Positions 29,887-30,384 are shown, numbered from the stretch's first letter. The stretch: DNA of 64,000 nucleotides from Escherichia coli (GCF_024700885.2 NZ_CP117016.1), one strand, 5' to 3'. Numbers and translations are program-made. The notes: generated by a model not told the origin, from the sequence alone.

Positions 29887-29909
29887 CTGCCCCCGCACTA
29901 AGGGGGCAG
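29887..29909 (+). promoter_or_regulatory. 8-bp perfect stem-loop immediately upstream of the trmL start codon
   Basis: ctgccccc-gcactaa-gggggcag ends 1 nt before ATG 29911; the right arm contains the only purine-rich SD-like sequence. Confidence 0.45.
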
Positions 29910-29910
29910 T

Positions 29911-30384
29911 ATGCTAAACATCGTACTTTACGAACCAGAAATTCCGCCAAATACTGGCAACATCATCCGTCTTTGCGCTAATACCGGCTTTCGTCTGCAT
30001 ATCATCGAACCAATGGGATTTGCCTGGGACGATAAGCGCCTGCGCCGCGCGGGGCTGGACTATCACGAGTTTACCGCCGTTACGCGTCATCATGACTATC
30101 GCGCGTTCCTCGAAGCAGAAAATCCCCAGCGCCTGTTTGCCCTCACCACGAAAGGTACGCCTGCTCACAGCGCCGTAAGCTATCAGGATGGCGATTATCT
30201 GATGTTCGGCCCGGAAACACGCGGCCTGCCAGCAAGCATTCTTGATGCCCTGCCCGCTGAACAAAAAATTCGCATTCCAATGGTGCCGGACAGCCGCAGC
30301 ATGAACCTGTCCAATGCGGTGTCGGTCGTGGTGTATGAAGCCTGGCGGCAGCTGGGATATCCGGGAGCGGTGTTGAGAGATTAG
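29911..30384 (+). CDS. trmL: tRNA (cytidine/uridine-2'-O)-methyltransferase (SpoU family)
   Basis: 157-aa [29 protein letters not shown]. Confidence 0.9.

Follow-up and report, generated by a model that had tools for sequence, protein, structure and literature searches.

The gene trmL of Escherichia coli follows lldD in the same orientation at a distance of 47 nt, and a stem-loop ends just one nucleotide before its start codon. This arrangement raises the question of whether the stem-loop serves the end of the lldD message, the start of trmL or both, and on which transcripts it forms at all. The analysis was carried out on a window of 64,000 nt, by which we mean the whole stretch of E. coli DNA considered here (GCF_024700885.2 NZ_CP117016.1); coordinates are counted from its first nucleotide unless they are given as those of strain K-12. 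The window carries lldP-lldR-lldD-trmL on the plus strand, followed by cysE, gpsA, secB and grxC on the minus strand. The names lldD and trmL were taken from E. coli RefSeq records, and those of the other genes (lldP, lldR, cysE, gpsA, secB, grxC) are presumptive assignments read from translations. The TAA stop codon of lldD occupies positions 29861–29863 (+), and the trmL open reading frame, which encodes a tRNA Cm34/Um34 2'-O-methyltransferase of 157 amino acids, spans positions 29911–30384 (+).

Read directly from the sequence, positions 29887–29909 consist of CTGCCCCC-GCACTAA-GGGGGCAG, followed by T29910 and the ATG of trmL (29911–29913). The 5' arm CTGCCCCC (29887–29894, +), delimited by sequence, fold and orthologue comparison, pairs with the 3' arm GGGGGCAG (29902–29909, +; sequence and fold) over 8 bp, seven of which are G-C pairs. 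The arms enclose a 7-nt loop, GCACTAA (29895–29901, +; sequence and fold), whose bases are also the first ones of a short, 16-nt trmL leader. The structure has the make-up of the GC-rich stem-loop of an intrinsic terminator. An initial annotation of the locus had described an 8-bp stem abutting the trmL start codon, and the sequence at 29887–29911 agrees with that description exactly. It had also placed the only purines resembling a Shine-Dalgarno (SD) sequence in the 3' arm, and the sole candidate, UAAGGGGG (29899–29906, +; identified by sequence), is found there, beginning in the last loop bases, continuing into the 3' arm and ending 4 nt before the AUG. UAAGGGGG is complementary to the 3' end of 16S rRNA with one G·U pair, and the GGGGG of the 3' arm is unusual for an SD.

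Fold energy, one of the checks proposed in that annotation, sets the hairpin apart from its surroundings. The 23-mer folds as RNA with −17.1 kcal/mol (RNAfold) as compared with −6.8 ± 2.4 kcal/mol for dinucleotide shuffles (z = −4.3; none of 200 shuffles was as stable). When 53 crudely defined genes of the window are ranked by the stability of their start-codon-proximal structures (ending at most 8 nt from the start), trmL comes first, with −18.5 kcal/mol versus a median of −5.3 kcal/mol. With DNA parameters, the hairpin reaches −9.0 kcal/mol. A U-run after the stem, whose absence had been noted initially, was not seen: the tail TATGCTAA contains three T in 8 nt, and a terminator scan, which needs a T-run, made no call at the site. 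Nor did a promoter consensus scan, which needs a −35 element. Rfam covariance models applied to positions 29000–31000 at E values up to 10 gave no match at the hairpin, by which membership in a curated RNA family (riboswitch, leader, thermometer, sRNA) was ruled out.

The decisive feature of the locus, missed in the initial annotation, is a conserved extended −10 element that adjoins the 5' arm. An alignment of positions −48 to +6 from 57 species revealed a small block of conservation that borders the stem on its 5' side; further upstream, the sequence is unalignable. Invariant in this block are columns T21, A22 and T26, which correspond to −12T, −11A and −7T, the three most important bases of a −10 hexamer; T16, T18, G19, T23 and C25 are conserved to at least 90%. 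The resulting footprint, T-n-TG-n-TAT-n-CT, maps in the window to T29878-n-T29880 G29881-n-T29883 A29884 T29885-n-C29887 T29888. It lies within the element TcTGcTATCCT (29878–29888, +), which comprises T(−17) at 29878, TG (−15/−14) at 29880–29881 and the hexamer TATCCT (−12 to −7) at 29883–29888, and of which TGcTATCCT (29880–29888) displays the combination of TGn and TAnnnT that defines a σ70 extended −10 promoter. The hexamer reads TATAAT in Hafnia and TATACT in Edwardsiella. Neither a conserved −35 element nor any promoter-like conserved block further upstream was detected among the 57 species, and the upstream sequence differs even among E. coli strains.

Promoter and hairpin overlap, as the 5' arm is composed of the last two hexamer bases and the GC-rich discriminator GCCCCC (−6 to −1). 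From the −10 element, the G that is the first loop base (K-12 3781199) is predicted to be the start of transcription, and this same G begins the published 5' UTR. In the work of Adams et al. (2021; PMC7815308) the trmL forward primer for the "entire 5' UTR" consists of a vector tail plus GCACTAAGGGGGCAG; the construct begins at GCACTAAGG, 7 nt after TATCCT, and constructs of this type use 5' UTRs defined by dRNA-seq. The putative trmL start site, G29895 (+), located 7 nt after the hexamer, therefore derives from a supplementary cloning primer rather than from a primary start-site table. Together, these data support the view that trmL has a σ70 extended −10 promoter of its own, with transcription probably starting at about G29895 in the hairpin loop. 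Because transcription would start in the loop, trmL's own mRNA is predicted to lack the 5' arm, so that no hairpin forms and the SD is free.

The sequence after the −10 hexamer is reminiscent of that of a ribosomal RNA promoter. In rrnB P1 it reads TATAAT-GCGCCACC-ACTGA, and the trmL counterpart is TATCCT-GCCCCCGC-ACTAA. The discriminator, GCCCCC in E. coli, reads GCGCC directly after the hexamer in many genera and GCGGC or TCGGC elsewhere, and a C is present two bases after the hexamer, as is expected of a stringently controlled promoter. In contrast to rrnB P1, the trmL promoter lacks a near-consensus −35 element and an UP element, and it possesses the TG of an extended −10. The rrn-like discriminator suggests growth-rate or ppGpp control of the trmL promoter, with which the reported decrease of yibK (trmL) mRNA along with mRNAs of ribosomal protein genes in a 6S RNA mutant is consistent. 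Genomic SELEX with σ28 and σ24 holoenzymes produced peaks at 3779166 in the K-12 lldD>yibK spacer (approximately 29860–29910 in the window; PMC5493296); no RpoD genomic SELEX peak is listed for the lldD-yibK spacer (PMC3946193).

For a comparison beyond E. coli, trmL loci from 80 species were collected and the 70 nt upstream of each were inspected. A hairpin was found at the same place in 57 Enterobacterales species, which, judging by their genera, we take to represent seven families. In every one of these species, the stem starts between −1 and +5 nt after the −10 hexamer and ends 0–7 nt before the ATG. The outer part of the stem changes by lineage with complementarity being kept (CTGC/GCAG, GCGG/CCGC, GCGT/ACGC, GCTTCGG/CTGAAGC), loop sequences are unconserved, and the arms are 3–9 nt apart. 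RNAalifold returned no structure when given the raw MAFFT alignment, in which the 3' arms are out of register. We therefore used a registered pseudo-alignment with one parameter per sequence, i.e., the dominant diagonal of its own fold, and with the −10 element serving as anchor for the 5' arm. Registration by each sequence's own fold leans towards structure and inflates the percentage of paired cells.

In the registered alignment, the covariation score was 0.301 as compared with 0.133 ± 0.016 in shuffles (reached in none of 500) and at most 0.16 in slid registers, with the proviso that the species are related and that shuffle tests hence overstate significance. Changes on both sides of a pair occurred in 49 cells versus 23.5 ± 5.1 in shuffles of the same alignment. 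Pair 6-23 is G-C in 24 and C-G in 19 distinct sequences, and pair 7-22 is C-G in 34 and G-C in eight. Combining arms from different species costs 2.6 kcal/mol of stability relative to the native combinations (0 of 10,000 permutations). Of the 51 distinct sequences, 41 form a more stable structure on the sense strand than on the antisense strand, and G·U pairs number 32 on the former versus seven on the latter. We take the outer pairs and the strand bias as real evidence for a folded sense strand; the C5/G5 core alone could arise from a discriminator that faces an SD. A T-rich tail (at least five T in 8 nt) follows only seven of the 51 distinct orthologous hairpins, and 44 are without a T-run. 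The Serratia hairpin is followed by TTTTT and scores as a terminator; in some genera, such as Serratia, a hairpin with a T-run probably terminates read-through transcription directly. Outside the order, in Aggregatibacter, trmL is preceded at a similar distance by a TTTAGA-16-TATAAT promoter, and no hairpin is present.

Within E. coli, a 40-nt core (29878–29917) occurs in exactly one copy per genome, and 5364 of 5420 complete genomes share it without a single difference. The one core variant that was inspected has a run of seven G, a difference in homopolymer length that is probably an assembly error. The single-copy state of the core in the 5420 genomes also ruled out the hairpin being a dispersed repeat of the REP/BIME or boxC type. 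The lldD-trmL spacer as a whole is hypervariable, with lengths of 47, 72, 102, 153, 185 or 197 nt (loci L001–L006), of which 47 nt is found in the window and in E. albertii and 197 nt in K-12. These length differences are caused by inserted boxC-like repeats (CCCTCTCCC...GGGAGAGGG and GGGGTGAGGG; window equivalent, 29864–29886) that enter upstream of the core and leave the last ~35 nt before the trmL ATG unaffected. The 47-nt form is probably ancestral. In the window, which is without the boxC insert of K-12, no structure other than the hairpin follows lldD. What is designated the "primary" lldD 3' end of K-12 (3781065) is borne by the hairpin of the inserted repeat.

The hairpin is not a chance structure, because it ranks first in stability within the window, belongs to a core that is identical among E. 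coli genomes and is conserved with covariation in 57 species. Its genomic surroundings are less constant. The gene 5' of trmL is co-directional in every species surveyed and its identity varies by lineage: based on its C-terminal sequence, it is presumably cpxA in most families; in Escherichia and some Enterobacter this place is taken by lldD, and in Citrobacter and Lelliottia by a transporter gene. Often just 35–46 nt separate the upstream stop codon from the trmL ATG. Because footprint and hairpin stay in place though the upstream gene changes (cpxA, lldD or transporter), the sequence comparison indicates that promoter and hairpin form a module which travels with trmL and always faces incoming transcription.

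Published RNA data from K-12 show that such incoming transcription exists at the locus. Term-seq located an RNA 3' end at K-12 position 3781218 (+), the C that follows the trmL start codon and lies 5 nt downstream of the stem (Adams et al. 2021; PMC7815308). By sequence identity, it is equivalent to position 29914 (+) of the window (supplementary files 1 and 3 of PMC7815308). This end was seen in a single study under one growth condition, with a modest number of reads (~1470); it is absent among the matches listed for the TRS dataset, where the one entry within trmL is an antisense 3' end. The end at 3781218 has a Rho score of 3.68 and lies within a significant Rho region; its intrinsic-terminator score of 1.92 is below the cut-off of 3 (PMC7815308). 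Direct RNA-seq coverage across the site drops from 425 to 96 without bicyclomycin and from 942 to 784 with this drug (PMC7815308). Since bicyclomycin, an inhibitor of Rho, restores downstream coverage, the loss is Rho-dependent. Moreover, upstream transcription must enter the element because a 3' end past the stem requires stem-containing RNA, and coverage before and after the site is 425 versus 96.

A Rho termination region has also been mapped inside trmL at K-12 position 3781497 (score 8.4, p = 8e-46; PMC7815308), which corresponds to about position 30193 of the window. The start of trmL is C-rich and G-poor (29911–30014, +; C/G ratio of 1.9 over the first 100 nt) and constitutes a candidate Rho loading region. 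By contrast, a lacZ fusion that contained the trmL leader and open reading frame without the 5' arm was insensitive to Rho (1.0–1.4-fold), which the authors left unexplained (PMC7815308). Computed costs of opening the region from SD to AUG are 4.5 kcal/mol on RNA that starts at G29895 and 10–18 kcal/mol on read-through RNA. The initial proposal that the hairpin occludes trmL initiation is thus borne out in prediction for lldD read-through RNA, but it would not apply to trmL's own mRNA, which appears to start in the loop. Within trmL, published datasets also record minus-strand signals, namely an antisense 3' end and a region of Rho termination, at K-12 positions 3781523–3781531 (3781526 in supplementary file 2 of Adams et al.; 3781525 in TRS), i.e., around 30215–30225 of the window, which implies antisense transcription entering from the cysE side.

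We consider it probable that the promoter-embedded hairpin is a read-through insulator of trmL, which silences trmL on upstream RNA and caps the upstream message. Promoter and ribosome-binding site would form a composite element in which the hairpin arises only on transcripts that start upstream. trmL's own mRNA would begin with a 16-nt leader that has the 3' arm only, leaving the SD UAAGGGGG free. Read-through RNA from the co-directional neighbour (lldD here, presumably cpxA in most Enterobacterales) would contain both arms, and the hairpin of −17 kcal/mol would bury the SD and leave trmL untranslated. We propose that Rho, acting on the ribosome-free, C-rich start of trmL, then terminates inside the gene, and that trimming by 3' exonucleases proceeds as far as the hairpin, whose stem would remain on the lldPRD message and protect its 3' end as a cap. 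TrmL output would follow its own promoter, which is probably sensitive to growth rate or ppGpp, and would be shielded from the induction of the neighbouring operon by lactate or Cpx.

We found no published description of this arrangement for trmL. If the proposal is correct, trmL represents a clean chromosomal case of a gene that ignores transcription from its neighbour because its ribosome-binding site is exposed only on RNA from its own promoter. It would then be understandable how a gene of the translation apparatus can reside 47 nt behind the strongly inducible lldPRD operon (cpxRA in most genera) without being co-induced. A published puzzle, namely the Rho signal inside trmL that is present in vivo and missing in the reporter, would also be explained, as Rho insensitivity of the fusion is what the model predicts for a construct that lacks the 5' arm. 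Furthermore, in reporter or expression constructs that begin at the annotated spacer instead of the true start, the hairpin would form and translation would be underestimated. Consisting of −10 element, C-rich arm, loop, SD arm and ATG, the motif has the simplicity that a genome-wide search requires.

Other readings of the hairpin were weighed against this proposal. It might be a plain terminator at which RNA polymerase arriving from lldD or cpxA is halted directly by an intrinsic, hairpin-driven mechanism, the overlap of the hairpin with promoter and SD reflecting only genome compaction. The RNA 3' end 5 nt past the stem is in line with this, and so are the terminator-like Serratia orthologue with its TTTTT, the seven of 51 orthologues with at least five T in the 8-nt tail, and the frequent distance of 35–46 nt from upstream stop codon to ATG, which leaves no space for another terminator. 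We nevertheless regard it as unlikely, given that the terminator scan makes no call on the E. coli tail UAUGCUAA, that the published intrinsic-terminator score stays below its cut-off (1.92 < 3), that loss of coverage depends on Rho and is relieved by bicyclomycin, and that a T-run is missing from 44 of the 51 distinct orthologous hairpins. The initial suggestion that the hairpin terminates lldD transcription fares accordingly: RNA does end 5 nt past the stem, but the low score, the dependence on Rho and the rarity of T-rich tails (7 of 51) speak against the stem itself stopping the polymerase. Alternatively, the hairpin could throttle or regulate translation on trmL's own mRNA, acting as cis-repressor, RNA thermometer or protein operator. 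Such a role, which the location of the SD in the 3' arm, the high cost of opening the hairpin once it has formed and the conservation of the structure might recommend, appears quite doubtful to us: in every species the conserved −10 element adjoins the 5' arm and would direct initiation 6–9 nt downstream, in or after that arm, and the published 5' UTR begins in the loop. In addition, no conserved promoter-like block exists further upstream, where the sequence varies even among E. coli strains, Rfam offers no match, and the loop sequences are unconserved. A mimic of the tRNA-Leu anticodon loop serving TrmL autoregulation was ruled out separately, on the grounds that the loops are unconserved and that trmL's own mRNA would be without the hairpin.

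More radical is the notion that the pairing has no function at all, a C-rich discriminator (stringent control) and a G-rich SD being complementary by mere chance. GC-rich discriminators and purine-rich SDs are each to be expected independently, and the CCCC/GGGG core comprises the best conserved pairs. Coincidence is, however, hard to reconcile with covariation of the outer pairs (CTGC/GCAG, GCGG/CCGC, GCGT/ACGC and GCTTCGG/CTGAAGC), with native arms pairing better than chimeric ones, with GGGGG being an unusual SD and with an RNA 3' end that maps at the stem in vivo; we judge it to be very unlikely. An element acting at the level of DNA seems more improbable still, be it an inverted repeat around +1 that serves as the operator of a dimeric repressor or a hairpin formed by the non-template strand during initiation. 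Half-sites that change between genera with complementarity being kept are typical of a folded strand and unlike a protein operator, the G·U/G·T asymmetry speaks against an operator in the form of a symmetric duplex, the arm spacing varies from 3 to 9 nt, and no evidence of a binding protein was obtained. These points outweigh the centring of the inverted repeat on the start site, the stability of the DNA hairpin (−9.0 kcal/mol) and the tolerance of DNA hairpins for G·T pairs, by which the strand bias would be compatible with a non-template-strand hairpin. Finally, the selected pairing might act in DNA as well as in RNA, with the non-template strand folding from the discriminator to about +15 during initial transcription. 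Because the stretch that is single-stranded in initial transcription holds both arms, this strand could adopt the same hairpin, and the G·T bias of the sense strand fits a DNA hairpin as well as an RNA hairpin. We give this combined role only the slimmest of chances; if it existed, it would tune open-complex lifetime, promoter escape, or the sensitivity of a stringent-type promoter to ppGpp or supercoiling.

The logic of the proposed read-through insulator has precedents in phage T4, where genes e (lysozyme), soc, 49 and I-TevI have hairpins that sequester the ribosome-binding site and contain a late promoter (McPheeters et al. 1986; reviewed in PMC3014915). In the type represented by gene e, a helix in the long, early RNA from an upstream promoter buries SD or AUG, and a short RNA without the upstream strand is translated; the same is proposed for trmL. 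The features of the T4 e and IS10 type recur in trmL, where the GGGGG of the SD is inside a stable helix of the long RNA and the putative own start is within or after the 5' strand. In contrast to the T4 genes, trmL is a chromosomal housekeeping gene, and the purpose would be insulation from a neighbouring operon instead of temporal control. Its promoter is of the σ70 extended −10 type, whereas that in T4 is a gp55 late promoter, and trmL appears to add Rho termination and 3'-end capping. In IS10 and IS50, read-through RNA from outside reportedly pairs a segment upstream of the element's own start with the ribosome-binding site of the transposase gene, and RNA from the internal promoter is said to escape. 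Read-through RNA of trmL would likewise pair a segment preceding the start with the ribosome-binding site. Protection of IS10/Tn10 and IS50 from external promoters by fold-back inhibition is attributed to Davis, Simons and Kleckner (1985), as cited in PMC13181058. Here, by contrast, a tRNA methyltransferase gene takes the place of the transposase gene, and the pairing is a compact, local hairpin of 8 bp that is centred on +1 and conserved across a bacterial order.

With respect to RNA 3' ends, trimming of Rho-dependent ends to a stable stem-loop has been discussed by Adams et al. (2021; PMC7815308) and by Dar and Sorek (2018). The end at trmL resembles these trimmed ends in that a GC-rich stem lacking a U-tract precedes it by a few nt and that bicyclomycin restores downstream coverage; it differs from them in that the protecting stem doubles as discriminator and SD of the next gene. 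The GC-rich 8-bp stem, the 7-nt loop and the RNA 3' end just downstream are also reminiscent of an intrinsic terminator, from which the trmL hairpin departs by the absence of a U-tract in E. coli and most orthologues, by its low score and by the Rho-dependent drop in coverage. Classification as a canonical intrinsic terminator was ruled out for E. coli by the missing U-tract and the dependence on Rho.

Several other hairpins and repeats came to light in the course of the analysis. Positions 16245–16290 of the window comprise two adjoining boxC-like hairpins, ACCCTCTCC...GGAGAGGGT and GGGTGAGG...CCTCACCC, which are of the same repeat type as the K-12 insert upstream of trmL. In the 153-nt spacer allele (L002 425–459, E. 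coli S163-2; several records fall into the same length class), the centre of the repeat is replaced by the palindrome CTGTCTCTTGATCAGATCT-CC-TGATCAAGAGACAG. We take its first 19 nt to be the inside end of IS50/Tn5 and its second part to be 14 nt of an inverted copy thereof; the palindrome could be a tiny remnant of an IS50 end or a MITE-like insert. Between the convergent genes trmL and cysE, a REP-like palindrome, GCCGGATAG...CATCCGGC, is located at 30393–30428; its Rfam match to naRNA4 (CssrE) is weak (23.8 bits, E = 0.17) and far below the gathering score. The cysE/gpsA spacer contains a perfect 8-bp all-GC hairpin, CCGGCCCG-TTCTGCG-CGGGCCGG, at 31286–31308 (−18.3 kcal/mol). Its equivalent on the minus strand of K-12 coincides with an abundant Term-seq 3' end at 3782582 (~47,000 reads), which TRS lists as the primary 3' end of gpsA.
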